A stretch of 64,000 bases of DNA from Heptranchias perlo (taxonomy: Eukaryota): assembly GCF_035084215.1 (NCBI RefSeq), contig NC_090357.1:12152001-12216000 (forward strand). The letters run 5' to 3'. Each line of letters begins with the position of its first letter. Positions within the stretch are counted from its first letter, which is position 1. Of the stretch, positions 13,407 through 49,596 are shown in pieces. A model generated the notes under the pieces. That model was not told the origin of the DNA, searched no databases, and saw nothing but the letters and a program-made list of their open reading frames with translations. The position numbers were made by a program, and so were the translations under genes.

Positions 13407-13613
13407 ATGTGGAGATGCCGGTGATGGACTGGGGTGGACAAATGTAAGGAGTCTTACAACACCAGGTTATAGTTCAACAGCTTTATTTAAAATCTCAAGC
13501 TTTCGGAGGCTTCCTCCTTTGTCAGGTGAGTGACGAAGGAGGAAGCCTCCGAAAGCTTGTGATTTTAAATAAAGCTGTTGGACTATAACCTGGTGTTGTA
13601 AAACTCCTTACAT
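13407..13613 (-). mobile_element. Palindromic Penelope-derived mini-element (subfamily B)
   Basis: About 85-bp inverted arms around loop GGTGAG (13525-13530), with a 33-nt tail on the left. TSD TTGTTTATTTTTG (13394-13406 / 13614-13626). Confidence 0.9.
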
Positions 13614-14369
13614 TTGTTTATTTTTGTAACAGTACACGGACGTACTGTAATGCGTACTGTGGAATAAAGCAGCTTGCAATATGAACCGAACTTTGGTGCT
13701 AATTAGGTCTACCTTTGGAGAGATTGAGGGAGTACATGTGCGTAAGGCACAGTATTATAATTACTTGCGTAAAATCACAATGCTCTTACACTCCAGCTGA
13801 AGACTATGGCCCATGTTTCTGTGGTCATAAGTAGAAACTCCCATTTAGTTTGCAGTCTAACTTACATTTAGAATATAACTGTTCATGGGAAAGCCGACGA
13901 TTCCATCTATGTCACCTCATGGAAAGCCCATCTCCTGGCAATGGAATGCCATTGTAGCAGGAGCCACGGACTTGTCTGCCTTCCAGCTATCAGCAGTTAC
14001 AGGAATAAAAGGAGAAGAAGGGGAAGATATGTAAATATACTGCAGATTGAGTACTGAATGCTCCATTTGCAAACAGCAAATCTCTTCCATTTCATTTGAG
14101 TGTTGGCTGGTTGTGAACATCTTTCATTTGTATTATTTTCATTGAAAAGTTGAGCTTATTTCCATGTCTTTTTTCCACAATTCCCATCATAGAAAAAAAG
14201 GAAACTGCATCCATAAAAAATTTAGGGAACAGACAAAATAAAACCCATTACTTCGTGGCATGGAAGAAATGTGTTTTCCTTGCACACATTCTGAAATCCA
14301 TATAGCATACTAACTTAATCAGTTATGGAGGGAAGGAGAGTGTGAAAACCTATTTTAAGCAGAACATAT

Positions 14370-14810
14370 TTCTTTTCAATCCCTCCCCAGTTTTCTCCCT
14401 TGTAGTCACACTGGGGTTTCATGTATACTAGCTGCCTTCCAGTGCCTTACCCAAGTGGCCAATTTTCATGTGTGAGCCTAGACATCACAACGCAGCCTGC
14501 TCCTGTCCTACTCAATTTCTACCGTGTCAATACTGGAATACATTCTGAATCAGAGGATCCTGTTAAAATATAAAATACACACAACAAAACCAAAAGCATT
14601 CCAGCAGAGGTTATATGGCAGCAATTAGGAGTGTGAACCCTAGCTGAATTTCTCCTTTCACTTGCCGAAGGGTACTGAGACCAGTTATAGTGGCTGTACT
14701 GCTGCCTAGCTGAAATCATATAGATTAAGCACAGGTTGGGGGATTGAATCTGGGATCTTTCTAGTCTGTACAGTTTGGCTACGGAATTGGACTGTGCCTT
14801 TACCACATGA
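14370..14810 (-). mobile_element. Ancient tRNA-derived SINE (family also at about 16005, 28078, 33073, 44520 and 52285)
   Basis: The reverse complement contains GTCTAGGCTCACACATGAAAATTGGCCACTTGGGTAAGG and TAGGACAGGAGCAGGCT blocks shared with the other copies. Confidence 0.6.
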
Positions 14811-16004
14811 CCCATTATGGGAGCAAAATAATGCATTTAGGACAAGAATGAGAACTTTTGTGACAACACTTGGATACAAGATCCTACTCGAGGGAAATGC
14901 TTTGCAGAAAAGTAGAGACCTTGCGACAATTCTGTCAGTTCTAACATTTGATTATCAGTGATTTTTCCATTGTTTTTCAAAATGACTAAGTTTTATAGTG
15001 TACACACTTAAAATAATTAAAAATGAAATTGTTATAAACCATACCATGTAAGCATGGCTTAAAGAAACTTTATTGCATGTTATATTTTGAAGCTTTAGTA
15101 AATCTAAAGCAAATAAAGCTGTCTGTAAAAGTAAATAAGATATATTTTCCTTACTAATAACAGAGAAAATACATCATTTTTGATGTAAAAGATTTACCAC
15201 TAATGGTTTTTAGCCAGAAACGTGGCTGAGGCTGTGTTTGGCCTTGTGGAAATCTGCTGGGCCCTAGAGAAGTGGATAAAGCATTTCATTGTCACATTGC
15301 CAGGCTACACACATGCAACTTAGTTTTCTTATTTGCTTCAGTCCCTGAGGTACCATTTGAATTAATCACCACACATGTAGTGTGTGGGTTGTGCCAAAGA
15401 ACCCCACATTACAGATTCAATAAAACAAATTTTAAAAATGCAACGCAAGCATATGTTAATGGGGAAGAGAAGAGAGTGGGTCGAGAGTCCATGTTAGAAC
15501 TTCGCAGTCAAAAATGTATCCACATTCTCCATAAAAGGTGTTTCTGTGGAAGGGCTTCAGAATGTAGCAATTACTGAAAGTGATAGCTTTATACTGAGAA
15601 TGCAGTCGATAGTTTGCTAAGTGTTTAAACATTTGAGTACTTATAATATGGAAGAATTATGCTCGATGTAATTCATATATTCTAGGAAAGCTAAATTCAT
15701 CAGTTGACTTATGGCCTGTGTTTAATTATAACATGCATTCCAGCCTGGAGAGGTAATACAGTTAATGTGACTATGGTTCTGAGCTGTATCACAAATATGG
15801 AACAGAAGCAGTAGATGGCGGTAGAATATCACAATTGCTGAGCAGGACTTTTTCACTTTAAAGTTTCATTGTATTTTTAAGATATGGCATTCCTTGTCTG
15901 TTTTGCCATAGCTGTATAGTGAGAGTAAGCTTTCAAATTTACATTGTTAAACTACCTCCATTAAGTTTTACTTGGTGCTCAGCTAGGATGGCTCAAAGTT
16001 GCTG

Positions 16005-16228
16005 GATTAGGAAGAAGGGTTCCTGCTCCCGATCCCATACCTATTGACCTGTGCAGGTGAGAACAGGATTGGGCTATTCTGTGATGCCCCAATGACTAAA
16101 CAGCCGACCAACTTATTGCCTAAGCTCGTGAAAACTGCCTGCTTGGGCCAGGTACTGAAGGGTTTCCAGTATCTGTGGAGCTGTACCTCCGCACGAATCG
16201 GCACCTTCAGGAGACAAGGGTAGAAAAT
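16005..16228 (+). mobile_element. 3' half of the same ancient SINE family
   Basis: GGGTTCCTGCTCCCGATC...GGTGAGAACAGGATTGGGCT...GTGATGCCCC...TTGGGCCAGGTACTG...CACCTTCAGGAGA. Confidence 0.6.
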
Positions 16229-17300
16229 TGAAGATCTCTTTATAAATGTAGCTTGACCACCACTAATTTTGTAAACTAGAATGGTGTACTGTTCTGTTAA
16301 ACAAAATTTAATTTTCCACTGTATTTAAGAAAACATTGAAACTGTTTTACCTTGAAGAGTGCATCTCGTTCCTCTTGTTTGTGCTCGTGTTAAAGATGCA
16401 CATGCAACAGATTGCACGCAGACCAACCACATTTAGAAGCAGCTAGGTGTAGCCATATTAATTTCTTCTTCAGATGTGTTTGTGCAATCATGGATTGGTA
16501 AACATTTACACATACAGAAAGTGTTTGTTTTTGTCTGTGACCAGCTCAGTAATTTACAGATTTTAAAAAAATCTAAAAGAAGTTAAATCCTTTTGTTATA
16601 TCCTTGATTTGTATCCCCTTTGAGCTCATTCAAGCAGCAGGTTTCCATAACACTAGATCCATATTTGTTTCAATCGATAATATTGATATTAAAAAGTATT
16701 TAAGCATTTCTTCAAAAAGCAATGCTATTTAATAAAAAGGCTTGCTTGTTGTTAAATTTGCATAATGACATATTAATTGTGGATTAAGATTACGTTTTGC
16801 AAAACCCTGCTGCTTGAATAGGCTGGCACGGCAGCAGTGAGAGCCATTGGTATCATTGCGTCCTAGCGATAGCATGACATACAGTGTTGTAAGTGAGCAC
16901 CTCTACTAAAAGTTGTGACAAAAAGTTGGAGTATGGGGGCTGTGGTCCAACAGTAGTACACAGGTGGAGGCATAATAAAAGGTCCAATTTACATTGGAAA
17001 TGGGATACTAAATTAAGAATTTAATATGAATTGATCACTAATTGAATCATTGAGATGCCTCACAAGTTCTTTGGAGCAACCTTTTCAGATCGTGTGTTAT
17101 TTGGGGTAGTGGGTTGTGGATTACTGATTAAGTATTCAGTGTGTAGTATAGGGACAATAATAAATACCTGAAAGTAATCTCATCAAGGGGTTAATCCAGT
17201 TTCAGTTATCTGTATACTGTTTATAATTACACTGTTTCAGCTTGCTTTTTGTATGCAATGAGGAATGGGGTTATTCTGTATTGGCATGCTTTTGTCTACC

Positions 17301-17509
17301 GTTGTAAACAATTTTACAACACCAAGTTATAGTCCAGCAATTTTATTTTAACTTCACAAGCTTTCGGAGGCTTCCTCCTTCCTCAGGTAAATGAGGAAGG
17401 AGGAAGCCTCCGAAAGCTTGTGAAGTTAAAATAAAATTGCTGGACTATAACTTGGTGTTGTAAAATTGTTTACAATTGTCAACCCCAGTCCATCACCGGC
17501 ATCTCCACA
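17301..17509 (+). mobile_element. Palindromic Penelope-derived mini-element (subfamily A)
   Basis: Perfect 84-bp arms (17302-17385 / 17392-17475) around loop GGTAAA, then tail ACCCCAGTCCATCACCGGCATCTCCACA. TSD TTTTGTCTACC (17290-17300 / 17510-17520). Confidence 0.92.
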
Positions 17510-19109
17510 TTTTGTCTACCAGCAGCTGACTGGTTGTAGCCTTTAAATATTCTGTGATGATGTCCACATAAAAGGATTAATAATTGTAGTAACTTTATTA
17601 AGACATTCTGCATTGATTACTAGGAAATATTGTACATGTATTAAAAAAAAGTTTATCTTATGTGAAAGTGGTCATTCAAACTGTCATTATAGAGGTGGTA
17701 CAGGATACACTGATGTACAACATTTATACTTGACTGACAAAAGTGGTCTCAACTCAGAAATATTAATACCTTCAACAGTGCAATGGTTCATTCCTGCCCA
17801 CCACATGCTTTATGGCACAAGTTTTGACTTTGATATATATTCCAATTTTTAAAAAAAATCTTTGTATTTAATAGTACTTCAGGAACTAGCATTGGAAGAT
17901 GGAGCACTATGTCTTGACAATGGTGCAGCTGAGCTGGAAAGCTTCTATTTGTTGATTCTTTCTAATCAGTTCCCGTAAAACATTGCGGTTGTTAACACAA
18001 TCACTGCGTTTGTTTCAACTGGATTTAATTTCTGATCGCAATTTGAAATCAGACCGAGTAAAACAAACAAAGGCATAGAATTTTCGATGTGTTGGTGATG
18101 AAGGTATGATCTGCTTTGCTACTAAGATGCCACTTGTGGTGAGATATATATTATGTGGATGTATACTCATTGTATATAGACTGCTATTTTGTCAGACTTT
18201 AAATTTTCTCACAGAAGTAGCTGCATATGTTAAACAATACAATTTATTTCTTATTGTCTGCCAGTGAAAACATTTGGAGGTGCTTTATTGACATTGTTTA
18301 AACACTCTACACTGTAATAGCATTCTTCCACATGGATTGGATTTCTTAAGTATTCCAGCAGTATCTCTGTGTTTTGTCAAGAAATCTGGGATTTGTAGCA
18401 TTTTCAGTAGAGGATGATTTGGTAATTGGCCCCAAAGGATTAGTGAGAAGTCAGTGTTGGACAAGGCTGAGTTTTATTTTTGTTTTGCTCCCGCTCCCCA
18501 AGAAAAAATTGTAAGGAAAACCACAATTTTCATTGGCTCTCTCAGTTTTTTCAGATGATCTGTGAACATTTGAGGTCTCTTCAAGCCATTATCTTTTATT
18601 TAGAGAGATGCTTAATTTATTGTGCTCTTCTGATTTCAGATTTCCCCCTGCAAGAACTTCAGATTACTGTAGTTTATCATGAACTGAAGCCATGTTTTCA
18701 CAGACAGGAACGATTTATCTCTTTCACTTATGTTTTTCCCTTCAGGAATTCTGGCAGTAACACCCATGAAGAATAACACAGTTGATGCCAGTTGTTACTG
18801 TTGCTATGTTATTCTTAAGGGTGTCAACAAGGGTCTTCTAGCAATTGTTGCATTTTAAAATGTGACAGTGTTACTCGTGGAAATTAAGAGGGTAAACCAT
18901 TACTGTTGAAGCCAGTTGAATTTGCACTTTTGACAATGCTGGTCTTTTACTACAGTTGTAATGGAAGAATTCACTCTGTTCTGGATACAATGGGTTTCAG
19001 GTCAAGATCAATGTGTGCATGCAGCTGCTATATTCTGTGTTGTGCTTCACTTCCGTCCTAACGAGTTTTGTTTCTCATTACACTATTCAAAGTCAAATTC
19101 ATTGGTCGT

Positions 19110-19171
19110 GTTCCTCCTCCCTATCAAGGCCATTGATCTTGTTCCTCCTCCCTATCAAGGCCATTGATCTT
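19110..19171. repeat. Perfect 31-bp tandem duplication at the 5' junction of a Penelope mini-insertion
   Basis: GTTCCTCCTCCCTATCAAGGCCATTGATCTT occurs twice in tandem. Confidence 0.95.
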
Positions 19172-19262
19172 GTGAATTTAAAATAAAATTGCTGGACTAT
19201 AACTTGGTGTTGTAAAATTGTTTACAATTGTCAACCCCAGTCCATCACCGGCATCTCCACAT
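19169..19262 (+). mobile_element. Short Penelope-derived insertion (subfamily A), 3' arm plus tail
   Basis: CTTGTGAATTTAAAATAAAATTGCTGGACTATAAC...GGCATCTCCACAT, with CATTGAT on both sides. Confidence 0.88.
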
Positions 19263-20429
19263 CATTGATACATTAAGTTTCAGATGGAAGGTAGGTAGAT
19301 GGATGAGTGTGTTGTGTCTGACATTAGTAATGCTCCTTCAGAGTTGAGAGCAGACCTACTTGAGTGTAAGACACGGAACGAAAGTCCTTCCCTTTATCAG
19401 TGATGAACACTTCAGTGGTCGAGTTATGAACATTGGGGCTCAGTTAGCAAACAGTGAAATCCAACATAGTGCTTAACTTGGCTTCAGTGGCACTGTTGGC
19501 ACTCAAATCTATAACCATAGGAGCATAAAGTAAGCATACAAACAACCATGGACTACTGGTGCTCATATCTGTAACTATAGGAGTGTGAGGTAAGCATTGT
19601 CTACTTCTTCTCCATGTTCTAGTGAAATGTCTCCAATATGAGTTTCATCTCTCAAACTGACTCCTGCGTAAAAGTGGTGGCAACCAAAGTGAACATAAGT
19701 ACACTTGAAATTGACCTCAGTTGAATTCTATTCCCTCAGTTAATTGGGGCTAACTACAGTGGCTGTGTTATTGTACAGTGAAACCATTGTTAAACAGTTA
19801 TGGTGTAGAATGACCAAAGGTGGTTGTGGAGGATAGGAGGCTCATTAATCCAGGTTAACAATGATTCATTTTTGTAACCTGATAACTAACTGCAGCTGAA
19901 TGCAGTCCTTTTAATACCCAGTGTATTTCTACTAGTCGTGCTTTCAAAGAATTTCTCACTCACCAGTTTCTGTTCTGTCTAGTATTTTCAGTGGGTTACA
20001 TACTCCTCAGTTTCTGTTATTGTAAGCAGACCAGATATGTATTTTCTGTGGCTTCTTGTTTTATTTTTAACTGTGTTCATTTATAATTATACTTTGGCAA
20101 GCAAAATAATTGATTTTAATCAATAGAAGCTTTTGATCTCTTTGACCCACGTTGTACAAAGATTGGCTGAAGTACTTCCTAATAAGTTCGTAAAGTCAAA
20201 AACATCAAATGTCAACAAAAACATTAGCAAGATGGTAACAATTAGGAAAAAAAATTATAGTTCTCCGTACTTGCCAAGGTAATGCAGTTATGACAGAGAA
20301 ACACATCGTTGAATCGAATCTTGAGCAAGCCTTCTCCATCACAGACCTTAGGGGTCACTAACAATACAATTTATCGTAGGACAATTCTTTTTCAACCAGC
20401 TCCTATATTGGCCTTGGAGGGGCTACAGG

Positions 20430-20891
20430 GCCTTCACCAGAATTAAATCAGGCATATTAAAGCGTTACATTTGGAGGAGAGGCTGCAAAACGTGGCTTGT
20501 ATTCCCCTGAGTTTGGAAGGTTGAGGGATGATCTACTTGAGGTTTTTGAAATGATAAAGGGATTCGATAGGATGGATACAGAGAAACAATTTCCTCTGGT
20601 GGGGGGAATCCAGAAGAAGGGGGCATAATCTTATAATTAGAGCTAGGCCATTTGGGAGTGAAATCAAGAAGCATGTTTTCACCTAAAGGCAAGTGGAATT
20701 CTGGAACTCTCCACCACAAGGCTGTGCATGCTGGGTCTATTGAAATTTTCAAGGCTGAGGTCGATAGATTTTTGTTGGGAAAGGGTATCAAGGGATATGG
20801 AGCAAAAGTGGGTAAATGGAGCTGAGGTACAGATTAGCCATGATCTCACTGAATGGCTCAAGGGGCTGAACAGCCTACTCATGTTCCTATG
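20430..20891 (+). mobile_element. CR1 3' fragment
   Basis: Decayed ERL..LGL / LRDDLLEVF segment and a CR1 3' UTR ending GCCTACTCATGTTCCTATG. Confidence 0.85.
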
Positions 20892-21739
20892 AATATAGTT
20901 GATTTACTGTAGACTTCCAGCCATGTTATGTTAGCACATGGCCATTTGGGAGTGTGTTTTGCAGTATCATAGTTTAACCTATATATATATATATATATAA
21001 CATATGAAATAGGAACAGGGGTAGGCCATATGGCCCCTCGAGCCTGCTCCGCCATTCAATAAAATCATGGCTGATCTTCGACCTCAACACCAATTTCCCG
21101 CTCGATTCCCTTAGAGTCCAAAAATCTATCTATCTCAGCCTTGAATATACTCAACTCAGCAGCCAGAGCCCTCTGGGGTAGAGAATTCCAAAGATTCACA
21201 ACCCGCTGAGTGTAGAAATGCCTCATGATCTCAATCATAAATGGCTGACTCCTTATCCTGAAACTATGCCCCCTAGTTCTAGACTCTCCAGCCAGGGGAA
21301 ACAACCTCTCAGCATCTCAATCTTTCTGAACAACAACATTTAATAGTTTCTCACCATTAAAAAATACTCTTTCTTTTTCTATTCTTCCTACCAATGTGAA
21401 TAACCTCACATTTCCCCACATTACCTGTCACCTTCTTGCCTACTCATTTAACCTGTCCATATCCCTTTACAGACTCTTTGGGCTCAATATTAGCAGGGCG
21501 GTGGGTTCTCAGCGGGGGGTCGACTGGGCGCGTAGGTAACGTGCCCGGTGAAATCGGGGTGCTCCGCACGCAATTACAGGATAATTGGAGCCACTTACCC
21601 GTGCTTCCGGGTTTCCCGCTGGTAAGCTGCGCGGCGGGCGGACTGCGCATGCGCAGCAAGGTCTGTCAGCTGGAGGAGCCCTATTTAAAGGGGCAGTCCT
21701 CCACTGACTGATGCTGCAGAAAATAGGAAAAATTACAGC

Positions 21740-21986
21740 ATGGAGCAGCCCAGGAGGAAGGCTGCTCCCAGGTTTAATGTTGCCTCACTCCAGGTATCAT
21801 TGGATGGGGTGAGGAGGAGGGGGAGGACAGAGATCCTCCCCCCCGGCGGGCGGGAGGAAGCGGCCTGCCTCTGCCACCAAGAAGGCCTGGCTCGAGGTGG
21901 CAGAGGAGGTCACCAGCACCACCAACATATTGCGCACCTGCATACAGTGCAGGAGGCGCTTCAATCACCTAAGTAGGTCAGCCGAA
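21740..21986 (+). pseudogene. Harbinger Myb/SANT-like DNA-binding protein, first coding exon (frameshifted)
   Basis: MEQPRRKAAPRFNVASLQVSLDGVRRR... shifts frame to AWLEVAEEVTSTTNILRTCIQCRRRFNHL. A GTGAGT donor follows at 21987, and a TATTTAAA lies at about 21683. Confidence 0.8.
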
Positions 21987-22930: not shown

Positions 22931-25900
22931 CGGAAGATGTAAATTTGAGGGGGTCCACAAAGTAGGTAAATGTGTCTGGACACCGGGGTAAGTGTGCAAG
23001 TTTATGCATTTGATTGTTAGGAGGAGGGTGGTGGAGGCCAAACTTTGTCCAAACTGACAGAGTGGCCTCCTGCAATGAGTGAGTGAGGGTCTCCCCCCCC
23101 CCCCCCCCCCCCCCACCTGTCAAATGGACTTTTGCAGATGCCACAGGCTGGTGGCTGCAACACGTCCATTTCAACTGGGAGTGTTTCCCCCAGTACGGGA
23201 AACAGTCTCAGTTAATTGCAAAATCCGATCCCTCCTAAAATATCAGGTCAATCAGGTCTGTAAACAACCTGAAGTACCTGTTCAATTACTTTAATTGGCA
23301 CCCTGACGGCTTTAATTGCTGGCGGGAGTCCCACATGCGGGGGCTGCGCACGCATGTGAGCGCGTCACTGGGGAACCTGGAAATGGGGCGGGTTGGAGCC
23401 GGGCTCCGGACCCGCCCCAGGAATCCCACATTTTCGCAGCCCCCCCCCCCCTCCCGCCACCAACGCACCAACGCAGGTGCGAAAATAGAGCCCTTTGTGT
23501 CCTCCTCACAGCTTACTTTCCCACCTACTTTTGTATAGTCAGCAAACTCGGTCCCTTCATCTAAGTCATTAATATAGATTGTAAATAGCTGAGGCCCAAG
23601 CACCAATCCGTGCGGTATTCCACAGCCTGCCAACCTGAAAATGACCTGTTTATCCCTACTCTCTGTTCTCTGTCCGTTAACCAATCTTCTATCCATGCTA
23701 ATATATTACCCCTATCCCTATGAGCCCTTATCTTGTGTAACAACCTTTTACGGTGGCATCTTATCAAATGCCTTTTGAAAATCCAAATATACTACAAACC
23801 ACTGGTTCCCCTTTATCTACCCTGCTCGTTACATCCTCAAAAAACTCTAATAAACTTGTCAAACATGATTTCCCTTTCATAAAACCATGTTGACTCTGCC
23901 TTCTATTATGATTTTCTAAATGCCCTGATACCACTTCCTTAATAACGGATTCCAGCATTTTCCCGACGACTGATGTCAGGCTAACTGGCCTGTAGTTCCC
24001 TGTTTTCTCTCTCCCTCCTTTCTTGAACAGCGGGGTTGTATTTGCTACCTTTCAATCCGCTGGGACCATTCCAGAATCTAGGGAATTTTGGATATTTAAC
24101 AGCTGAAAAATATACTGTGGGATGAATTATCTAAAGAAGGTAGTAAGGAAATGGAGGTGGAGAGAGGGTAGGGGGCAGCAACACTAATGGAATCTTTGTG
24201 TTTTGTGGCATGGCTGCTTCAGTTTTACTGCAGGTATAAAATCCACAAATAAGTTTCACTGCTGCAAATAGGTTTCTAAATTGACCAAAGGGGTGTATCT
24301 TTTGATAACACTAGCATAAAGAAATCCCATGTCCCATTATTACATTTCTGCTTTGTTTAAGCAGCATTGTATGTTTGATCCATTTCCTTGAGCATTGACA
24401 TAAAAAAGCTGTAAGGAATGATCCAGAAGATTTAAATCACTGGAGGCTACATGTTTCACAGTAGAATCTGCTGAATCACTCTTGTAGCCACACATACATG
24501 CATGAAACACGCTTTTAAAATTTTAAAAACATTCGAACAATATAATCTGTCTTAATCTTTTCTCACTAGCTAATCGAAAGACATTTTAGAATTATTTTGC
24601 CTCCTAATAAAAAATACAATTTTCTCAGTTACTAGCCAAGTCCATGAAAGTTACTGTTCGTATATTGAAGATATGTCTTGGATATATAGGGTTGAAATCT
24701 TTTGGGGAAAGATAATAATTTGTCATATCTTAATAGTTGGAACAATCGTAGAATCACTGATCCATGTCCTATTCCTTATCCTCTTCTCTTATGCTTTATT
24801 TATAGCAGGAGGCTGTAGTATAAAAGTCAGCATATTAGAACCTGAATAGGTCTGCAGTGGATCTCAACAATACTTCATTTCACCCTGTTCCCAGCAAGAA
24901 GCAAATCATTTTGTGGCTGGCTCCCTGCAGAGGTTAAGTCAATGTTGACAATAGATCCCTGGACACCTGACGGGAGTTAAATTGTTAAACTGGTGTAAGG
25001 CCATTCTTCAGTTGTTTTACTGATATTAATTTTTGCCTGGACTTACAGTGCTTTTGATTATGACTTGCCAGGAACTAACCGTGTTAAAGCTGAGAAGGCA
25101 GGGAAAATAGATTGTAAAACAACAGTTTAATCTTTTCACACAGCTCCATAAAGAGTAAAAGGCCATCGCCTGCGGTTCTCTTCAATTCTGGCTTAAAGCA
25201 AGATTGTCTGCTAAATATTTGTTGCGCAACACTCACTTATTATTAAATCTACGTAATCTGACATTACAAAACCACTGTTCTTGCATTATGCATAAAAAAA
25301 CAATTTACAGATACCCAGATAGTCTTTACATCAGTAGGGGAGAAAAATCCAGCTGGAAAGTAAGTGCATATGAACAGATTTATCTAAATCAAGATTCTGT
25401 GATTGGTGTTCCTGTTTATTGGACTATTTCAGATGTCATGAGTATATCCAGTCGGTCCTTCCATGTTACAAGAGGATTAATTTTCTAAATTCCTGGCCAC
25501 AGGGAGCTTTAATTAAATATTTTATGGTTTTTCCTTATTAAATTTGCGACTTAAAAAAGTAATGAGCCATATGCTTTCACTATTTGATTAAATAAATGCT
25601 TCCGTATGAATTATATTTCCAATTGTCACATGAATGTAAAAGTATAATGGATTCCCTTATCTTCATCATAGTTTGTTACACTTAGTGAATGAAATCAGAC
25701 TGTGCATTACAGCCAACACATACACTAAATGTGTGTTAATGTGTAGTAATTTGCTGTGATAGCATTAATGGGTTTTGCCCATCCTTCTAAAATGCGCTGG
25801 ATTGTACTACATTAATACAAAAGCTCAATATTAATGATTTTTGGCTTGTTAAATACCAATTAACACTAAATGTGCAGCTATAATCACGCTAGCCTTTGAA

Positions 25901-30093: not shown

Positions 30094-31019
30094 TACTCAC
30101 TGCAGAATACCCAGCCTCTGACCTGCTCTTGTAGCCATAGTATTTGTGGCTGGTCCAGTTAAGTTTCTGGTTAATGATGACCCCCAAGATGTTGATTGTG
30201 GGGGATTCGGTGATGGTAATGCCGTTGAATGTCAAGGGGAGGTGGTTAGACTCTCTCTTATTGGAGAGATGGTCATTGCCTGGCACTTGTCTGGTGCAAA
30301 TGTTACTTGCCACTTATCAGTCCAAGCCTGGATGTTATCCAGGTCTTGCTGCATGCGGGCACGGACTGCTTCATTATCTGAGGGGTTGTGAATGGACCTG
30401 AACACTGTGCATTCATCAGCGAACATCCCCATTTCTGACCTTATGATGGAGGGAAAGTCATTGATGAAGCAGCTGAAGATGGTTGGGCCTAGGACACTGC
30501 CCTGAGGAACTCCTGCAGCAATGTCCTGGGGCTGAGATGATTGGCCTCCAAAAACCACTACCATCTTCCTTTGTGCTAGGTATGACTCCAGCCACTGGAG
30601 AGTTTTCCCCCTGATTCCCATTGACTTCAATTTTACTAGGGCTCCTTGGTACCACACTCTGTCAAATGCTGCCTTGATGTCAAAGGCAGTCACTCACCTC
30701 ACCTCTGGAATTCATCTCTTTTGTCCATGTTTGGACCAAGGCTGTAATGAGGTCTGGAGCCGAGTGGTCCTGGCAGAACGCAAACTGAGCATCGGTGAGC
30801 AGGTTATTGGTGAGTAAGTGCTGCTTGATAGCATTGTTGACGACACCTTCCATCACTTTGCTGATGATTGAGAGAAGACTGATGGGGCAGTAATTGGCTG
30901 GATTGGATTTGTCCTGCTTTTTGTGGACAGGACATACCTGGGCAATTTTCCACATTGTCAGGTAGATGCCAGTGTTGTAGCTGTACTGGAACAGTTTGGC
31001 CAGAGGCGCGGCTAGTTCC
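30094..31019 (-). mobile_element. Second Zenon-like CR1-group LINE copy, truncated at both ends
   Basis: ELAAPLAKLFQYSYNTGIYLTMWKIAQVCPVHKK, FDIKAAFDRVW, GVPQGSVLGP and MFADE. Closely similar to 802-1680. Confidence 0.92.
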
Positions 31020-31375: not shown

Positions 31376-31379
<4 letters not shown>

Positions 31380-31413: not shown

Positions 31414-31414
<1 letters not shown>

Positions 31415-37179: not shown

Positions 37180-39378
37180 TATTTGACCCTGAGATGAGCT
37201 TCCGACCACATATCCACTCCATCACCAAGACTGCCTACTTCTACCTCCGTAACGTCGCCCGTCTCCGCCCCTGCCTCAGCTCATCTGCTACTGAAACCCT
37301 CATCCATGCTTTTGTTACCTCTAGACTTCACTATTCCACCTCCTGGCCGGCTTCCCATCTTCCACCGTCCATAAACATGAGCTGATCCAAAACTCTGCTG
37401 CCCGTATCCTAACTCGCACCAAATCCCGTTTACCCATCACCCCTTTGCTCACCGACCTACATTGGCTCCCGGTCCGGGAACGCCTCGATTTTAAAATTCT
37501 CATTCTTGTTTTCAAATCCCTCCATGGCCTCGCCCCTCCCAATCTCTATAACCTCTCCAGCCCTACAACCCTCCGAGATCTCTGCGCTTTTCGAATTCCT
37601 ACCTCTTGCGCATCCCCATTTTAATCGCTCCACCATTGGCGGCTGCTCCTTCAGCTGCGTAGGCCCTAAGCTCTGGAATTCCCTCCCTAAACCTCTCCGC
37701 CTCTCTAGGAACATAGGAACAAGAGTAGGCCATTCAGCCCCTATGCCTGCTCCGCCATTTGGTAAGATCATGGCTGATCTGTGATCTAACTCCATATACC
37801 TGCCTTTGGCCCATATCCCTTAATACCTCTGGTTGCCAAAAAGCTATCTATCTCAGATTTAAATTTAGCAATTGAGCTAGTATCAATTGCCGTTTGCGGA
37901 AGAGAGTTCCAAATTTCTACCACCCTTTGTGTGTAGGAATGTTTTCTAATCTCGCTCCTGAAAGGTCTGGCTCTAATTTTTAGACTGTGCCCCCACTCCT
38001 AAAATCCCCAACCAGCGGAAATAGTTTCTCTCTATCCACCCTATCCGTTCCCCTTAATATCTTAAACTTCGATCAGATCACCCCTTAACCTTCGAAACTC
38101 TAGATAATACAACCTCAATTTGTGTAATCTCTCCTCGTAACTTAACCCTTGAAGTCCGGGTATCATTCTAGTAAACCTACGCTGCAATCCCTCCAAGGCC
38201 AATATGTCCTTCCGAAGGTGCGGTGCCCAGAACTGCTCACAGTACTCCAGGTGCGGTCCAACCAGGGTTTTGTATAGCTGCAGCATAACTTCTGCCCCCT
38301 TGTACTCTAGTCCTCTAGATATAAAGGCCAATATTCCATTTGCCTTCTTGATTATTTTCTGCACCTGTTCATGACACTTCAATGATCTATGTACCTAAAC
38401 CCCTAAGTCCCTTTGGACATCCACTGTTTTTAACTTTTTACCATTTAGAAAGTACCCTGTTCTATCCTTTTTTGATCCAAAGTGGATGACCTCACATTTG
38501 TCTACATTGAATTCCATTTGCCACAGTTTTGCCCATTCACCGAATCTATCAATATCCCTTTGTAATTTTATGTTTTCATCTACACTGCTTACAATGCCAC
38601 CAATCTTTGTGTCATCGGCAAACTTAGATATGAGACTTTCTATGCCTTCATCTAAGTCGTTAATAAATATTGTGAATAATTGAGGCCCCAAGACAGATCC
38701 CTGCGGGACTGCACTAGTCACATCCTGCCAATGTGAGTACCTACCCATTATCCCTTCTCTCTGTCGCCTTTCGCTCAGCCAATTTCCTAACCAAGTCCGT
38801 ACTTTTCCCTCGATTCCATGGGCTTCTATCTTAGCTAACAGTCTCTTATGTGGGACCTTATCAAATGCCTTCTGGAAGTCCATATAAATAACATCCATTG
38901 ACATTCCCCTGTCCACTACTTTAGTCACCTCTTCAAAAAATTCAATCAGGTTTGTCAGGCACCACCTACCTTTCACAAATCCATGCTGGCACTCTCTGAT
39001 TAACTGAAAATTCTCGAGGTGTTCAGTCACCCTATCCTTAATTATAGACTCCAGCATTTTCCCCACAACAGATGTTAGGCTAACTGGTCAAAAATTCCCC
39101 GGTTTCCCTCTCTCTCCTTTCTTAAAAAGCGGAGTGACATGTGCAATTTTCCAATCTAGAGGGACAGTTCCTGAATCTAGAGAACTTTGAAAGATTATAC
39201 TGCTCTCTCCTCCTTTAAGACGCTCCTTAAAACCTACCTCTTTTTGGTCACCTATCCTAATGTCTTCTTACTTGGCTTGGTGTCAAATTTTGGTTAATAA
39301 TCGCTCCTGTGAAACACCTTGAGACGTTGTACTACGTTAAAGGTGCTATATAAATACAAGTTGTTGTTGTTGTTGTTG
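37180..39378 (+). mobile_element. L2 LINE 3' end (37180-37705 and 39200-39378) split by CR1
   Basis: FDPEMSFRPHIHSITKTAYFYLRNVARLRPCLS...LIHAFVTSRLHYS, LHWLPV and GPKLWNSLP. The 3' end is AAAGGTGCTATATAAATACAAG(TTG)n. Confidence 0.9.
37706..39199 (-). mobile_element. CR1 LINE nested in L2, relatively young
   Basis: A 223-aa RT ORF (QHGFVKG, YMDFQKAFDKVPH, VPQGSVLGP, KFADDTK) plus the downstream ORF. The tail reads TAGGAACATAGGAAC on the + strand. Confidence 0.95.
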
Positions 39379-39480
39379 TGCCCATTCTTTGAAATATTTT
39401 CGTAACAGGTTTTTTACTTCCCCAATCTAATTCATTAATATTCAACATTCGTATAATGAATAAACAATTAAACATTTTAA

Positions 39481-39483
<3 letters not shown>

Positions 39484-39520
<37 letters not shown>
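39484..39520. repeat. (TA)n microsatellite
   Basis: Direct reading of the sequence. Confidence 0.9.
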
Positions 39521-42228: not shown

Positions 42229-42496
42229 ATCTGCATTCACACTTCAAATGTAGGGTTGGTGTCGAGCGGTTTGGCTTCATACTGGCACTGCAGGTACAGT
42301 GCAAATACAGCTGAATTTGGTATGAGGGCCCAACCTGACACCAGAATAAAGCTGAGTGAGACTTCTTGGAGGAGGTAATCTCATTCTGCTTTTTTTGGGA
42401 ATCAGATAGCGCCTGATTTACACTCCAAGTTTAGTGCCGTTGTTAAATGGTTTTGGCTTTGCGCCGACGCTAAACTTGTGTAGTGTGAATGCACCC
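42229..42496. mobile_element. Old MITE with TGCATTCACACT terminal inverted repeats
   Basis: TGCATTCACACT (42232-42243) pairs with AGTGTGAATGCA (42482-42493), with imperfect inward extension of about 20 bp. Confidence 0.6.
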
Positions 42497-42511
42497 TTAG
42501 TGTGACATTTC

Positions 42512-42695
42512 AAAAACAGATTAACTGACCACTCATCTCATTCGTGTTTGTGGAACGATACCGTGTGCAATGTGGTTGCCACTTTCACCTGCATAACAAC
42601 AGTAACTGCAATTCAACGCAATTCATTGTAGGTGAAGTACTTTGAGATGTTTCTGACAGGTGTGTTAAGGTACTATATTAATGTGAGTCTTTCTT
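42512..42695 (+). mobile_element. 3' part of a DeuSINE-like SINE with L2-type tail
   Basis: AAACAGATTAACTGACCACTCATCTCATT matches 63460-63495. It ends GTGAAGTACTTTGAGATG...AAGGTACTATATTAATG. Confidence 0.6.
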
Positions 42696-44519
42696 CACAA
42701 TACAATATCACTCTGAATTCCTAGCTGGTGCTCTCATCGGGGGAGGTTCCAGTAAAGTTGACTAGTTGTAACTCAGGTCATTTTGTTATTTATTAACCTG
42801 GTTGCAAGAGTGTAATAAGGCATAAATAACAGTTATCGGCATGCCGTTTTCAATGATGTCATACCGTGGCTGTGTGCATCTGCTACATGCACTTAGAGTA
42901 ATTGATAACATGCCTGAGAAAACAATCCAGACCAGAGGAGGGGGAAGGGAAGGAATGTGACCTTTATGAACCCCAAACCTCAAGTACTACTTTTCTCAAC
43001 TATAGTAACATCCATCCGATACAGCTTTTTAACCCTTTGCAAGTTGTGGTTACATGGAAAAATAATAAGATATTACAGTATTTAAAATCTATCAAGCGGG
43101 TCCAAATAATTTATCATTCTTCTGACTCTACATTATTCAATTCTGCTTTAGAATTGATTTTTTTGCAGCTGTTATATAAAGAACAATATGACCAGGAGTG
43201 TGGCACAAGACTTTAACATGTTTGAAGAATTTCAGTGATGTCAGGTGATCATAAACCCTCCCAATGGACCTCTGTGCTTTTACAATTCGTGGCAGTGAGA
43301 CAATTCAACTCTTCGGAATTATAGATACCTGCGAGTCTGTTTTTATTTATAACTTAACACTTTGTGTTGTATATTCGTGAAGGACAAAGTCGCTTCTAGA
43401 TTATTAGCGTATCAATCTATCCACTCAGACTTGTTTATACAGGATACAGCACCTTAATTCTGGACTATACCAACTGCACATATATCAGACAGATTAGCCA
43501 TGATCTTCCAATTAGCCGCAACACCAGCAGACTTGCGGCAGTCCAGAACTTCCACCACTGCAAAGATGCCCTCTGACACCAGCTGAGTTTCCAAGGTCAG
43601 GGTCATTTAAATAATTCTGCCTGGGAGCCATCTTGGGACCTGAGGCTTGCCCCAGTGTAACATGGCCTCTCGGGTAGCTGAAGAGTGGTAGAATTCTTTT
43701 CCAATTTTTCAAACTCATGGGACTGGAGAGTTTAATTGATCACCCCACTATCGATTTAACTGCCTTTAGGGGATTTAAAATTTAAATTCACTCCTCTACC
43801 AGCTATAGCAACACAGAGGGGCACAGAGGTGTCATTTGTGTCCAGTGTTGCTCAGGCACGTATGATGTATTCATGTCATTTTCCTCTAATTATGTTCTGA
43901 CAGAAAGTTAGCAAACCTGCTCTCGAAGATTGTTCTGACACACTGCTAGAGTTATGTCCAGGAGCTGACTTGAAAGGAAAATCGAAGCATTATTCCTTAC
44001 TCTCAACATTAATTGTATTAGGGCAAAAAAGTAAAAATTAATTAACAATGAGTCATTTCTACAAGTCTAGAATAGGTTGCAACTGGAAAAGTGTAGCAGA
44101 CTATTTGTCTGGAGATTTTTATCAGGATCCTGGAAACAATAAGAACTGCTAGCATTTCAAGTTGCCTGTGTTAAAATTCAGGAAGCATTTTACAACACAT
44201 TCTAAAAAGAAAATTTTGCCTGAGTAGACCACCAAAAAGTGATAAAGTAACTTGACAGTTCATTACAAAGGAAAGCCACAATGCTATTAGGCTTTTTTGA
44301 TAACTCATGATGTGCTAAAAGGTTAAATGAAAAGGATAAATATTGACTTGTGGTTATTGTCATTGGTAGCATTGAAAGTTTAGTCTTTTATGGCTCTTGC
44401 ATGAGGAACTGAGACTTGAAATGAGTTAGCTGCTAAATGTCTTGCACCTTTTGAAGATTATTTTTTAAAATGGCTGGCATCATTAATTATTAAGAATTTT
44501 AATCTTAATCTATGGATTC

Positions 44520-44830
44520 TTTTTCTCCTCCACTATTTTCTCCTGTATTCCTAATTTACTCTCCTCTCCCAAAGGTGAGGATTCATACTGAGATTCACTT
44601 CCATGAATATTGTTCAGTACCTCACCCAGGGGTTTTATCCTTCACATATGTGTCTGAATACTGGCTATTTGCATATTATTCAACATGGGAGGCATCAAGT
44701 CAAGTTCAATCCTGTCACACTCGACATACCTCCACTTCCAGCAGGGGTCACTTATTGGAGAAGCAGGAGTTAGAACCTGTCTGATTTTCCTTTCTCCCTC
44801 ACTCACTCAGGGACACTAAGCTCATCTGTG
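44520..44830 (-). mobile_element. Ancient tRNA-derived SINE copy
   Basis: CAGTACCTCACCCAGG...CTTCACATATGTG...ATCCTGTCACACTCGAC...TTCCAGCAGGGGTCAC is the reverse complement of the family body. Confidence 0.58.
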
Positions 44831-44965
44831 GAGCTCTCCAGCATTTTTGAACGATTTAGGTACTGACATTGAGACCATAAAAGTAGAAAATATAAAATAT
44901 TCAGAACATTATAACAGCTCTGTATCAGTTTTAGCGCCAAAGTAAAGAAGCAAATTGAAAGCCAA

Positions 44966-45609
44966 GAGCCCAATATTAACGGGTGGGTGGGGGGTTAAAA
45001 TCATGTCTTTGAGCTCCCCACACCATTCTCGACCCGTTCACGACGCACGCCAATTTAACAGGTGCTTTTCTGGCTTCAGGACAGCCGCAAGCCCCAGACA
45101 AGCGGGGGCCTAATTACAGAGGCAGAGTTGCAGTCCGATGACGTAATTGCAACATGCACGTGATTTTAACTCTGGGTCGACTAACTGGCAGCAGGCAGCA
45201 TCGTGGCCAGAAGAGGCCCAAGTAAGTCTTTGAAACATTTTTTTTTTAATGGTTCCTTGTGGGACAGGAGGAGCCGGAGTGATCCTCCTACCCCACAGGG
45301 AGACTTTAGAAATTCCGCTTCCTCAGGCCTCTTCCCCTTCCGATCATGATCGTTCCCAGTTCCCTCCCTTTACTCACACCTTGCTGGTGACTGTTTCCTT
45401 ATACCCCCAGCAACGCCCTGCAGCCTCCCGATTTCCTGCTCTCGTTCCCCCGACCCCTACGCATCCCCGCCGGTTTTGGGCAGGTGTCCGTGAGGGAACA
45501 ATAAAGTGAGGCCTGGATGTTAAAATCGCCCAGGCCTCATGCTCCAGGTTGCCAATCGGATTACTGCCCGCTTCAGGGCCCGATTCCTTCCACAGGTTAA
45601 AATCGGGGC
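44966..45609. mobile_element. MITE, Harbinger-like
   Basis: Imperfect TIRs GAGCCCAATATTAAC / GTTAAAATCGGGGC. CpG-rich interior with repeated GTTAAAATC / GATTTTAAC motifs. Confidence 0.7.
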
Positions 45610-48597
45610 TAAGTTGTCCAGCTGTCTCATTCTTGAAAGGGCTGTGGAACAAATCTCCTCTTTTCAGACAGATGATATTGATTAGAAATGTAAATCTAGT
45701 GATTTTAAATTTGGCAAAAGTTGTTGGGGGTGAATTTCCGCTGGTGTCCTCCTGATCATCCACTGTAACTTCAGCAAAAGAGCTGCGGAAACCCTGGAAA
45801 AATGATGTTTGCGCCATTTCGCTGGGGTTTCAGTGGTTCTTTCACTGAAGCAATGGCGGACAAGCAAGAGAACCCCCGCAGCACGTCACCCCTGTTCCAA
45901 CACTGATTTTGTTTTTTGGACTGAGGTGCTTGCAGGTGGAAAGCAGATAACACTGACCTTTCCGACTGCAGACGTGAAGTCATCTTTAAAGCAGACATGA
46001 GAAGCTAGCTTATCTTCAGGGGAAACCAGCCTTTCCTCGTAAATTACTTACAGCCATCGGCCCATTTGACATGTGACATTTTAAACAATGTAACAGTTCC
46101 TCAATACCACTGAACAGAACATGCGATTTAGTCAGTATTAATCTGGATGACATTGTAGTAAGCTCAGCTAGTGCAATTAGTTTGGAGATACTGATGCTGT
46201 CTGAACAGGCTCTCGGGTCATTAATTGTCACATCGGCATTTTGAAACTTCACTTTATGTTACAAGTATTTTTTTTAAATGAAATGACCTGTTATTTTTAG
46301 GAAAAAAGTACAGGAGATATAAATTGACAACATTTTTGCAGTCTCCAAATCATACTTTAGTGTTAATCAATGCCTAGTTACAGGCATCAAGCAGGGTTTG
46401 GAATCGAGAAGACTTGAGGGACGTAGTAGGTGAAGGAAGTTGAGTTTTGACAAAAAAAATTCCGTTTTTAGTTTTACAATGGTGTTGCTGTCATTAACAT
46501 GATGTTCTTAAAATGGAGCATGTGAGACACTACAGAAAAGTCACTGCAGAGCTGCACTTCTTGCTAAACTCCTTAGTACTTGGCTTTATTTTTATTCTAA
46601 GTTACAAACTGAAGAAACTATGACATTTCAGAGACTGCACCCTGCAGAAAAATTTCATCCAAGAGGGTTTGGAGATGTATTTAGGTGGTATTGTTTAGAT
46701 ATTGGTTTGAATCAAAGTAATTTCAGCTGTAAACAGAGCAGTACAAGCCAACAGCACCAACCTAAATGATTGGATTAAATTCACAACCAATGATAGTCGA
46801 GGTCTCTACAAAATCAAGGTCGTATCATGCAAAGATCCCAAAGGACGAGTAATTGTTCTCCAATAATGGTATGATCAGGTTATTCTTTCACTGGAACTAG
46901 ATTGTCATTTTGAACAAAGGAACAAGTGGCGGCTTAAAGAGTAAGTTCAAAATAGTCAATAGTGTGCTGTTCATGTCGATTTATGTGTGTGTCTGAGCAG
47001 TTGTGGGTGTACCTTCAGAGGTCAGGAAAAGCCCCCAGTAAAACATTAACAATAAATTAAATGTTGCAAAAGCTGGACATAGGATTTCCAAATGCCAATG
47101 TTCTTTCAGCTTGTTCAGTTTATAGTTGTACGGCATGCCACGTATTAATAATTGCCAATGCAATATGTATTTTTAAAAATGAAATATACATAAAGATCCT
47201 GAAATCTGCAGTTATGCTTTAAGTCATTATACAAGAGTTTTCAATTTATATTTAAAATATAGTAATTATGAGCAGATTTATTGTGGCATTGCACATGGTG
47301 AATCAGTTATGTTTTCTGATATTTAATTTACAATATAATAAGCACTAATTTACAGTGATTCAATAAGTCAAACTATGTTTTTATTACAGAGTTGTAAGAT
47401 TGTTAGTGATGTTTCGGGGCTTGAATTCAATGATTGTGTATATGTTGTGTCACATGGTAGTTCTTTTTATCTCAATTTTTAAAAAAAGTCCTGGATACAG
47501 AAGAAGATGGTAGGAAAATTGTTCTAGGCTGCAGGTAGGTAGAAGCTATGTGGTTCACGACTAGAGAGTTGATGGGACTGTGTGGATTTGTTGTATTTTA
47601 AGGATGGACCTAGGTTTAAGAAAAAGGCATCATGTAGTATGGGAGCATTGGAGCTGTGTAAGGTTTTTGGGTAATTGGAGGGGAGGATGGGAGATGTGGG
47701 AGCACTGGAGAGGCTGTACAGAAATTTAGGAGTACTAGAATGGGAACACTAGGGTCTCTTAGGAGTGAGAGAAGACCATTGGGTATGCCAGCAATGGGAG
47801 GGAGTCCTGGGTTATGAGAGGACTGGGAGAGGCGCTCTGAGGGTTGGAGACTCTTGAGAGGCTGGGTGTGACAGTGGAATTGAATACCCACAGATACCAA
47901 TTAAAATAGGCAACCACCAGATGAAAAATTAGGTAGACCGGCTTGCTGTTAACACTGATAGGGAAGATTGCTCTAGGCAGTGCATTTATTACACAGTAAG
48001 TTAGATGACTTTATGTAAAGTTTAAATTGAAACATAGCACAAATGGATAATTGACCACAATCCAGTGAACCATTAACCTTATCAATTAGAAAGAAATATT
48101 GGACAATCGCACTGTGGGTTCTTGTTTTACTGATGCATATCACTGTATTGTTCAGCAGTCTAATTCTATTTGTATTCTGTTCTTTGACACTGACCAATTT
48201 TATTTTCAATTTGAATGTGAAGCATGATATTATATCTAGTTCGTCTGATCATAGTTTGAAATGATTGTTATAGTTGCTGCAAAGGTTTCTTAAAACCATT
48301 TCTTCAACTACATATTTCTCTATAACTGATATTAATAAAATCCGTGGTAGTACCCATGGATAAAAATGTGCTTCTCTCTGCTTGTCTCCCACTCTCCAAT
48401 TTTACCTGGCTCTTGCTTCCTTTCTATTTATTTTCAACTTTTTACGTCTCACTCTGTATGCCTCACACTCTCTTTTGTCATCTCGTGTCTCTGTTTGTTT
48501 ATGGCTTATTTATTCATGTTTTCTCCCTTTGTGTGAGTCTTTTGTATGTCTCATAGTCTGCATGCCTCTCGCACATTTTCTGTCTTTGTCACTGTAT

Positions 48598-48732
48598 TGA
48601 TAATTCAGTGATCCCGCACTCTCAGCGGAGACCTGTGCTCACAGGGACTAGCTATCTGGAGCATTGTATCTCCGACCTGCGCTGCCTATAAGCACAGTTT
48701 TCCTGAGGAATGCGGTGGTGCGGAATTAATTA
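48598..48732. repeat. Degenerate inverted repeat (small hairpin MITE-like)
   Basis: Left arm TAATTC..CCGCA..CTCAG..CTGTGCT..CAGG mirrors right arm CCTA..AGCACAG..CTGAG..TGCGG..GAATTA. Confidence 0.55.
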
Positions 48733-48735
48733 TTG

Positions 48736-48797
48736 TATGTCTTGCTCTCTTTCTATGTCTTGCTCTCTTTCTATGTCTTGCTCTCTTTCTATGTCTT
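48736..48797. repeat. 18-bp tandem repeat, 3.4 copies
   Basis: TATGTCTTGCTCTCTTTC occurs three times, followed by TATGTCTT. Confidence 0.95.
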
Positions 48798-49397
48798 TCA
48801 TTCTTTAAACACTTTGAAGGTTTTGAAGTCAGCTTTGCACACAAGCATAGAGAAGAAGGGAACCGGCAGAAGCTTCACAGACTGGATCAAAGAAACTCTA
48901 AGGCCACCTTTGGCTTATGGGCTGGATCTTAAACATAACTCAGTTAGGGCACAAAACATTTTTAAAGTTCCTATTTGAAGGTTTGAAAGTTGGTAAAAAC
49001 AAAATAAATGCCTCCTAGCTATTCTAGGAGCCACTTACATTTTTGCTTTCTTGCAAGCATATAGGTAGGATATTTGACTCTCCTTCCTGCACAACTGCCT
49101 TGTGCAGTATTCAGTTCATGAGAACAATAAATAAACATTAGGAGTACAGTTAGAAAAGAATGCACCATTAATAGGTATTACAAATGGTCATAACCTATTT
49201 GAAGTGTAGCATTCAGTGATTTAAAAAGACTTGGGCCCTGAAAATTCATGATGAGGCACTATGTATGTGGGCAGGGGTGGAATTGGGACTGGACCCACAT
49301 ATATTTGATCTCTGTCTCCTTTTTTCAGAATTGAAACTTCCTCTAGAAGTTGAGACGAATGCTTCTTGCAGTCAGCCTCTTCCATCCAAACATCATT

Positions 49398-49596
49398 ACA
49401 ACACCAGGTTATAGTCCAACAAATTTATTTGAAAATCACAAGCTTTCGGAGGCTTTCTCCTTTGTCATTCACCTGACGAAGGAGAAAGCCTCCGAAAGCT
49501 TGTGATTTTCAAATAAAACAGTTGGACTATAACCTGGTGTTGTAAGATTCTTTACATTTGCCAACCCCAGTCCATCACCGGCATCTCCACATCATG
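49398..49596 (+). mobile_element. Palindromic Penelope-derived mini-element (subfamily B) with complete hammerhead motif
   Basis: About 70-bp arms around loop TTCACC (49468-49473), then tail ACCCCAGTCCATCACCGGCATCTCCACATCATG. TSD CCAAACATCATT (49386-49397 / 49597-49608). Confidence 0.92.
49469..49505 (+). ncRNA. Minimal type I hammerhead ribozyme motif
   Basis: TCAC-CTGACGA-A-GGAG-AAAGC-CTCC-GAAA-GC-TT-GTGA. Predicted cleavage after 49501. Confidence 0.7.

Follow-up and report, generated by a model that had tools for sequence, protein, structure and literature searches.

Inverted ends of a Penelope-like element in Heptranchias perlo: variable junctions near a predicted transcript start

Three head-to-head insertions at the locus

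We analyzed a stretch of 64,000 nucleotides from Heptranchias perlo (RefSeq assembly GCF_035084215.1, contig NC_090357.1, positions 12,152,001 to 12,216,000 of the forward strand; hereafter the window, whose coordinates are used throughout). The window contains three short insertions of one Penelope-like element (PLE), each built of two inverted arms that meet head to head and of which one ends in a tail. This report concerns where the two arms are joined and how such a junction may arise.

The first insertion (13405..13617, subfamily C) has its tail arm on the minus strand, from 13532 to 13405, and its tail-less arm on the plus strand (13531-13617). Its 6-nt loop (13525-13530) belongs to the tail arm, the inverted arms are 87 bp long and 95% complementary (13438-13524/13531-13617), and a 13-bp target-site duplication (TSD) is found at 13394 and 13614. 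In the second (17301..17510, subfamily B) the tail-less arm lies on the minus strand and the tail arm on the plus strand from 17392; the loop (17386-17391) is on the tail-less arm, the 84-bp arms are 100% identical (17302-17385/17392-17475) and the TSD of 11 bp is at 17290 and 17510. The third (49398..49596, subfamily C) carries its loop (49468-49473) on the plus-strand tail arm, between TSD copies of 12 bp at 49386 and 49597. Its arms disagree at three adjacent bases that are variants of the family (49421-49423 against 49518-49520), and it was likely copied from two templates, to judge from these variants.

The apices read TCA-GGTGAG-TGA (13522-13533), TCA-GGTAAA-TGA (17383-17394) and TCA-TTCACC-TGA (49465-49476), as an earlier note on this DNA had reported, and in all three hairpins one arm begins at the U of the CUGA of the hammerhead ribozyme core. 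The note's further description was likewise borne out: with distinct TSDs and membership of two subfamilies the hairpins are independent PLE insertions, and the loop of the 17301 copy is placed opposite to that of the other two. In contigs assembled from reads of run X1, each unique flank of the 17301 copy runs into an element end, and the two ends are oppositely oriented (14570-17325; 17487 onward); this run is possibly from the same sample as the assembly, and among the contigs listed none spans an apex.

Identity of the element and organization of its pseudo-long terminal repeat

Longer genomic copies of the element continue into a reading frame. Full-length units at loci L111 and L120 hold an intact open reading frame (ORF) of 902 aa, which starts at the ATG that closes the tail. 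It matches the Pfam reverse transcriptase (RT) profile RVT_1 (E = 3e-10, 40.5 bits, cut-off 29.6) and contains CHGNLCKTC at aa 753, a CX4CxxC linker that falls within the CX2-5CxxC pattern. A linker of this pattern between RT and endonuclease is present in Neptune and Nematis and absent from Poseidon (PMC8557442; published work is cited here and below from the accessible text of each paper). GIY-YIG-like motifs follow (VVYLI at aa 790, YIGET at aa 805), with no Pfam GIY-YIG match at E <= 0.001. The partial-tandem structure of the pseudo-long terminal repeat (pLTR) is present as a 3,086-bp unit repeat in L111. The arms end at about +84 and +121, counted from the hammerhead core nucleotide C3, and the tail, carried by a single arm, is 35 nt long, within the 30-40 bp given for such tails. 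By the definitions of PMC8557442 the element is, on these motifs and this structure, a Neptune/Nematis-type (Neptune-type) PLE. As the intact 902-aa product is the same in L111 and L120, the family has likely been active recently; several full-length units (L111:6372-9080, L120, L122, L142) lie within the first 6 Mb of contig C1.

At least five subfamilies were distinguished, which differ upstream of the ribozyme. Within the window the upstream region is kept in a single tail-less copy of subfamily A (13128..13275, plus strand), flanked by a 10-bp TSD at 13118 and 13276. It contains a TATA box, TATAAATG (13143..13150, plus strand), the first T of which lies 46 nt upstream of C3; the box is conserved in other subfamilies at -36 to -47. 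An initiator-like TCATTTC, by the usual initiator (Inr) consensus, follows at 13170..13176 (plus strand). Transcription is predicted to start at its A (13172; TATA+29; -17 from C3), which is also where the arms of subfamily A most often have their 5' end.

The ribozyme is a minimal type I hammerhead motif (13183..13222, plus strand), in which stem I pairs 13183-13188 with 13217-13222, CUGANGA begins at 13189, stem II has 5 bp and is followed by GAAA, and a palindromic AGCU replaces stem III. In the predicted fold it shows the features described for the minimal PLE hammerhead (PMC4209133), namely the CUGANGA and GAAA core, a short stem I, an extra unpaired base before stem II and the absence of stem III. 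An Rfam scan gave no hammerhead match and chance hairpin matches only; the region folds as RNA at -13.6 kcal/mol (z -1.6). Stem II varies between subfamilies with compensatory changes while the core and the AGCU palindrome are constant, which suggests selection on the ribozyme fold.

Downstream of the ribozyme, AATAAA (13228..13233, plus strand) is a possible polyadenylation signal with a putative 3' end about 15 nt further on. One contig of run X7 (taken, as a guess, to be RNA) has a loose poly(T) end at position 13467 and continues into non-element sequence; apparently a host transcript terminates here inside a PLE copy. Alignment of runs X5-X8, guessed to be RNA in the same way, to the pLTR of a full-length element showed neither a transcript start nor a transcript end. 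A genome search for poly(A)-ended copies returned one (L336), at the matching position, which is too few to count as support. Short copies may supply poly(A) signals to host transcripts.

Genome-wide distribution of the junctions

An exact-pattern count found 48,430 tail-bearing copies in the whole genome. With identical anchors, head-to-head copies numbered 2,611 with an inner gap of 62-92 nt, 11,519 with 93-123 nt, 5,407 with 124-154 nt and 954 with 155-185 nt; exact-match anchors of this kind favour young copies. For closer inspection we tabulated 96 distinct copies of the 93-123-nt class (3 of 100 listed rows are missing and one two-tailed copy was duplicated), 30 loci of the 124-154-nt class, of which one was not counted in its bin, and 92 distinct copies picked by their tail (8 of 100 rows were merged for identical flanks). 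The 5' ends were placed by multi-reference alignment, as single-reference BLAST misplaces the ends of diverged subfamilies; some arms of subfamilies C and E are still under-extended by this method.

The earlier note held that the arms fold back at one fixed nucleotide, and had itself named widely scattered apices as what would speak against this. The apices scatter over about 30 nt: 19 spacing classes occur among the 96 zone copies, and in 27 one arm is cut inside the ribozyme core. In the commonest class (15/96) the arms form an almost perfect palindrome whose centre lies 7 nt upstream of CUGA. The 6-nt loop of the window copies is present in 5 of the 96, with locus L199 as a probable sixth under mutations. 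Genome-wide this junction was counted 580 times (268 + 312), about 5% of the 11,519, a proportion to be read with the difference in anchors in mind. For three window copies to fall into one spacing class has a chance of about 0.005 per window; as such a case is expected somewhere among more than 20,000 genomic copies, we regard the shared class as a coincidence at a real, modest hot spot.

As precursor of the apex the earlier note had proposed a micro-hairpin, TCG-TTCACC-TGA. The sequence is present at 13181-13192, in the subfamily A copy, which is the parent of none of the three hairpins. Reference copies of subfamilies B and C mostly read ACA or GCA before the loop, so that what is shared with the U4-G5 end of CUGA is usually CA/TG, 2 nt. 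No DNA fold of the micro-hairpin is predicted on either strand (0 kcal/mol). What does hold is that junctions crowd at the 5' edge of the ribozyme and that short inverted matches such as CA/TG steer the join; a fixed micro-hairpin is not part of it. A palindromic miniature inverted-repeat transposable element, or another non-autonomous unit moving as a hairpin, was considered and rejected together with an inherited apex, as the junctions differ between copies with otherwise identical arms.

Arm ends, target-site duplications and junction scars

The 3' ends of the arms fall at two positions. Among 219 head-to-head copies the second arm ends at +82..+88 in 172 and the tail arm at +119..+125 in 204, and a single copy has two tails. 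TSDs were found on 208 of the 219, with a length of 11-14 bp in 176.

Of 70 junctions free of filler, 41 show microhomology of at least 2 nt; among 350 blunt joins simulated for comparison, 61 do (p = 9e-12). Fillers are present in 56 of 126 junctions. Among fillers of at least 8 nt, 12 of 27 are copied from the element's own arms, and two match the host flank, one of these two being of low complexity. Joining by polymerase theta uses microhomology within about 15 nt of 3' single-stranded ends and leaves locally templated insertions of 3-30 bp (PMC7165422); short microhomology near the ends and templated insertions are both seen at the family's junctions. In some copies (L019:1352-1500, L062, L116, L302) the arms are separated by 27-150 nt of non-element sequence, which in L116 matches the host flank; a possible cause is capture of host sequence at the join.

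Loop polarity and arm templates

Snap-back of a single cDNA, as the earlier note proposed, requires the loop to sit on the tail arm, as a folded cDNA cannot give its copy a tail that it lacks. Of the 580 copies with a 6-nt loop, 268 carry it on the tail-less arm and 312 on the tail arm. Over all size bins the longer arm is the tail-less one in 86 copies and the tail arm in 52, the arms being equal in 27 (n = 165; p = 0.005). Copies with identical arms (n = 92) are biased in the same direction, with 52 longer on the tail-less side, 25 on the tail side and 15 equal. As the bias is already present in identical arms, later flipping of the loop towards 50:50 is a poor account of these numbers.

Arms were compared in 207 of the 219 copies, arms under 45 nt and nested insertions being excluded. 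In 11 of the 207, the window copy at 49398 among them, two or more non-CpG sites carry a different family variant in each arm. A null model of mutation from one template gave a mean of 0.17 and a maximum of 2 (60 runs), and random pairing gave 83%. Judged by these variants, roughly 6% of copies would use unrelated templates. Arms are identical in 114 of 207 copies and without a variant difference in 179 of 207. Simple single-cDNA snap-back is contradicted by the 268 of 580 loops that sit on the tail-less arm, by arms of different subfamily variants in some copies, and by junctions with microhomology of 2-4 nt or templated fillers. Tails on both arms were observed in the head-to-head copies L187 and L074/L075.

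Position of the junction zone relative to promoter and ribozyme

The 5' ends of the 92 tail-picked copies are bimodal, with 44 at -20..+8, 5 at -60..-21, 33 beyond -60 and 10 downstream of +8; an inverted partner lies within 2.4 kb in 58 of the 92. The subfamilies differ in the distance of the TATA box from C3, which is -46/-47 in A, -38 to -40 in B and -36 to -38 in C. The upstream edge of the zone is at -17 in A, at -10 in B and at -7 to -9 in C, the position of the ribozyme being constant. The longer arm ends at TATA+29..32 in 28 of 54 copies of subfamily A, 23 of 41 of B and 11 of 20 of C. Ends at -17..-14 and at -10..-7 stand at 24:9 in A and 3:28 in B and C together (p = 2e-7, in windows chosen after the modes had been seen). 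As the upstream edge shifts with the TATA box across subfamilies, the zone tracks the promoter and not the ribozyme.

The apex of 73 copies in subfamily B is formed by a perfect 10-bp palindrome shortly before the predicted start, that of 506 by a 2-3-nt match shortly after it, a contrast that is overstated because the palindrome is present in only 4 of 11 B reference types. The simplest reading of the end positions is run-off at the 5' end of the RNA, followed by trimming of up to about 20 nt.

Other copies and repeats in the window

Eight copies of the family were found in the window in all. Those not described above are a tail-bearing copy that starts just within the hammerhead core (7157..7277, minus strand), a short tail-less copy (10630..10692, minus strand) with an 11-bp TSD, a tail-bearing copy 5'-truncated near the predicted ribozyme cut (19169..19262, plus strand), and a very short head-to-head copy (59489..59565), in which a tail-less arm on the minus strand is joined to a tail remnant between TSDs of 13 bp. 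The truncated copy is directly preceded by a 31-bp tandem duplication of host flank (19100-19173), with a 7-bp repeat at its 3' end. By one search pattern the window holds three palindromes per 64 kb, against 4,308 per 3.25 Gb in the genome (about 0.085 expected); the excess reflects a local insertion hot spot or chance.

A GC-rich 27-bp minisatellite occupies 62327-62710 (14 copies, 96% matches). Other interspersed repeats, in both orientations, are located at 20494-21273, 23554-24090, 37744-39189, 54180-59453, 823-1626 and 30147-30949; we take these to be LINE-like from their resemblance to such elements. In appearance the non-PLE repeats of the window are like those of cartilaginous fish.

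A proposed mechanism for the inverted ends

The hairpins are real and their architecture is known, and the claim of a fixed apex fails. For their origin we favour a mechanism in which both target nicks prime cDNA, synthesis continues up to the predicted transcript 5' end and microhomology then links the two free cDNA ends; we would give this a probability of about 0.6. A staggered cut of 12-13 bp, deduced from the TSDs and from in vitro work, would provide two primers. Priming would begin at about +121 and about +84 from C3, the positions at which the arms are observed to end, mostly on the same or sister RNAs and in roughly 6% on unrelated ones. The RNA would start 29-31 nt after the TATA box, and starts within the 5' pLTR would give run-off cDNAs of 90-140 nt. 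The two cDNA 3' ends, being of the same polarity, would then be joined at inverted matches of 2-4 nt within about 20 nt of the ends, whether the RT itself or end joining of the polymerase-theta kind does this; the scar expected of such joining is what is observed. The 6-nt-loop apex would be one favoured solution, with the TG of CUGA paired to the last CA upstream of stem I. The junctions are variable and concentrated in a narrow zone, and the longer arm may be of either kind.

Several points weigh against this mechanism. The tabulated copies are not a random draw, being those listed first on contig C1 (and, for the 6-nt class, on into C2). Besides the windows set after the fact and the overstated contrast in subfamily B, the edge in B is soft, as single-anchored copies start at -12 to -22, and the modes of the subfamilies coincide with subfamily-specific short palindromes. 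Rank tests of A against B gave no support for the TATA reading (p = 0.15 relative to C3, p = 0.003 relative to TATA), in a comparison that mixes all size bins unweighted and excludes ends downstream of -5. Inspection by eye found no cap-derived extra G at ends at the predicted start, and that start is itself predicted from the DNA. Concordant arms agree with one RNA or one source locus, and a single copying of one template explains them as well as its use twice. Later gene conversion could account for the discordant arms; discordant copies average 1.0 other differences against 0.63 (10 and 204 copies). The two-tailed copy L187 has arms of different variants and no detected TSD. The in vitro work concerns a Poseidon-clade element, that of the anole, for which no difference in start site appeared between top and bottom strands (PMC11167929).

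Among the alternatives, the one that survives best, and which we consider unlikely, is that self-priming first produces a palindromic double-stranded intermediate, whose resolution by the endonuclease places the tail on a random end, the centres being perhaps trimmed afterwards. Self-priming has been proposed for PLE inverted junctions (PMC3846280), and the tail has been ascribed to endonuclease resolution (PMC8557442). The concordance of arms in 179 of 207 copies and the near-perfect palindromic centres of the commonest class agree with it, and random resolution permits the near 50:50 loop polarity of 268:312. It is at odds with the 11 copies whose arms are of different variants, with fillers at 56 of 126 junctions, some from the host flank or of unknown origin, with arm 3' ends at two fixed positions that resemble in vitro RT start sites, and with tail-less arms that are longer beyond chance.

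Two-ended priming in which the cDNAs end because the RT stalls or drops off at the folded hammerhead appears improbable to us. In its favour, stem I and CUGA lie within the bounds of the zone, many short arms begin at +1 to +5, and the hammerhead region is predicted to fold as RNA; against it, the upstream edge shifts with the TATA box relative to an unmoved ribozyme, and no accumulation of ends is seen at the predicted cut site near +27.

We give very little credence to a built-in TCA/TGA micro-hairpin that primes single-cDNA snap-back or fixes the point to which longer palindromes collapse. In its favour, the junction recurs in 580 independent copies of several subfamilies and in three of the three window hairpins of that size. 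As a general rule it is refuted by its share of about 5% of the zone junctions and by the 268 of 580 loops that lie on the arm unable to template a tail; moreover, no hairpin is predicted, and the parents mostly share just 2 nt. Collapse of longer palindromes would not follow the TATA box, and junctions are asymmetric in 77 of 92 identical-arm copies. That the hairpins are artefacts of assembly or library preparation (collapsed palindromes, fold-back reads) is hardly credible, as TSDs on 208 of 219 copies, the asymmetry of the tail, the differences between arms and the X1 contigs, in which the flanks of the 17301 copy reach opposite-facing element ends, stand against the want of an apex-bridging contig among those listed.

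Implications

Both PMC8557442 and PMC11167929 list the origin of the tandem and inverted ends of PLEs among the questions still to be answered. The family described here is a good natural data set for this question, with more than 20,000 short head-to-head events, subfamilies of differing promoter spacing and intact ORFs. The junctions argue against the simple form of the published self-priming idea, and they tie the two-strand, two-start biochemistry of the anole protein to inverted ends. The preferred mechanism of two primed and end-joined cDNAs predicts a start site for each subfamily, arms from mixed templates and dependence on POLQ. The fixed micro-hairpin alone is of little weight, being one microhomology among many.

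In retroviruses, synthesis of minus-strand strong-stop DNA starts near the 5' end of the RNA and runs off at the cap, and the short cDNA must then jump. A broader and more doubtful proposal, against which we would lean, is that PLEs prime at both nicks of the target on an RNA laid out like that of an LTR element, which would begin at TATA+30 of the 5' pLTR and end at a poly(A) site near +58 of the 3' one. If this were true, the tail start sites would exist only at the 5' end of the RNA, each insertion would begin as two strong-stop cDNAs, a jump across the terminal repeat of about 70 nt would yield long copies and regenerate the pLTR, and failed jumps would be end-joined into hairpins. One cycle, combining retroviral strand transfer with target priming, would then explain pLTRs, tails and inverted ends.

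Comparison with known systems

Inverted pLTRs, the one-sided tail, junction palindromes, the TATA/Inr motif and self-priming as a cause are all in print (PMC3846280; PMC8557442). The family resembles the published endonuclease-positive PLEs, with their inverted, 5'-truncated pLTR and 30-40-bp tail, in its head-to-head layout, one-sided tail and TSD, in its palindromic or overlapping inverted junction and in the TATA box and Inr-like motif of the pLTR. Self-priming, which the earlier note offered as a defined mechanism for these ends, was already put forward in PMC3846280. Where these two papers, in their accessible text, either settle on no mechanism or prefer self-priming on an antisense template, the tests of polarity, of two templates and of TATA tracking that more than 20,000 short events allow here favour two primed cDNAs. 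A model of two cDNAs, run-off and end joining for PLEs was not found in the accessible literature, and part of it may be contained in subscription papers (including those on Penelope from 2004-2008) or in supplements. Nothing in the accessible text of a 2026 preprint on animal retrozymes bears on the junctions (10.64898/2026.07.22.740005).

The closest biochemical parallel is the anole PAc protein, a Poseidon, which in vitro cuts and extends both strands, is predicted to form a dimer and starts reverse transcription internally at two sites that bound the tail; the hammerhead is dispensable for insertion (PMC11167929). The accessible text of that paper does not tie two-strand extension to inverted ends and leaves the later steps open. 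The arm 3' ends of the present family (+84, +121) match these two start sites bounding the tail. The two systems differ in that PAc belongs to the Poseidon clade and its ORF starts inside the ribozyme, whereas here the linker is of the Neptune type and the ORF starts at the end of the tail. The junctions resemble products of polymerase-theta end joining in their microhomology and templated inserts, which template jumping by the RT could mimic.

The likeness to retroviral strong-stop synthesis lies in the predicted internal start near the RNA 5' end and in run-off at the cap. Unlike in retroviruses, nicked chromosomal DNA rather than a tRNA would be the primer, failed jumps would be fixed as insertions, and the terminal redundancy is weakly supported.

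In LINE-1 twin priming both nicks prime cDNA, and the resulting inversion shows microhomology at the join and keeps its TSD. The present family shares with it the microhomology, the TSD and, as proposed, the priming from two nicks. The arms of a LINE-1 inversion derive from separate stretches of one RNA that do not overlap; in the present family the +1..+84 module is found in both arms, copied from two fixed starts. With arms that overlap, the hairpins fall outside LINE-1-type twin priming and resemble it only in how they would work.

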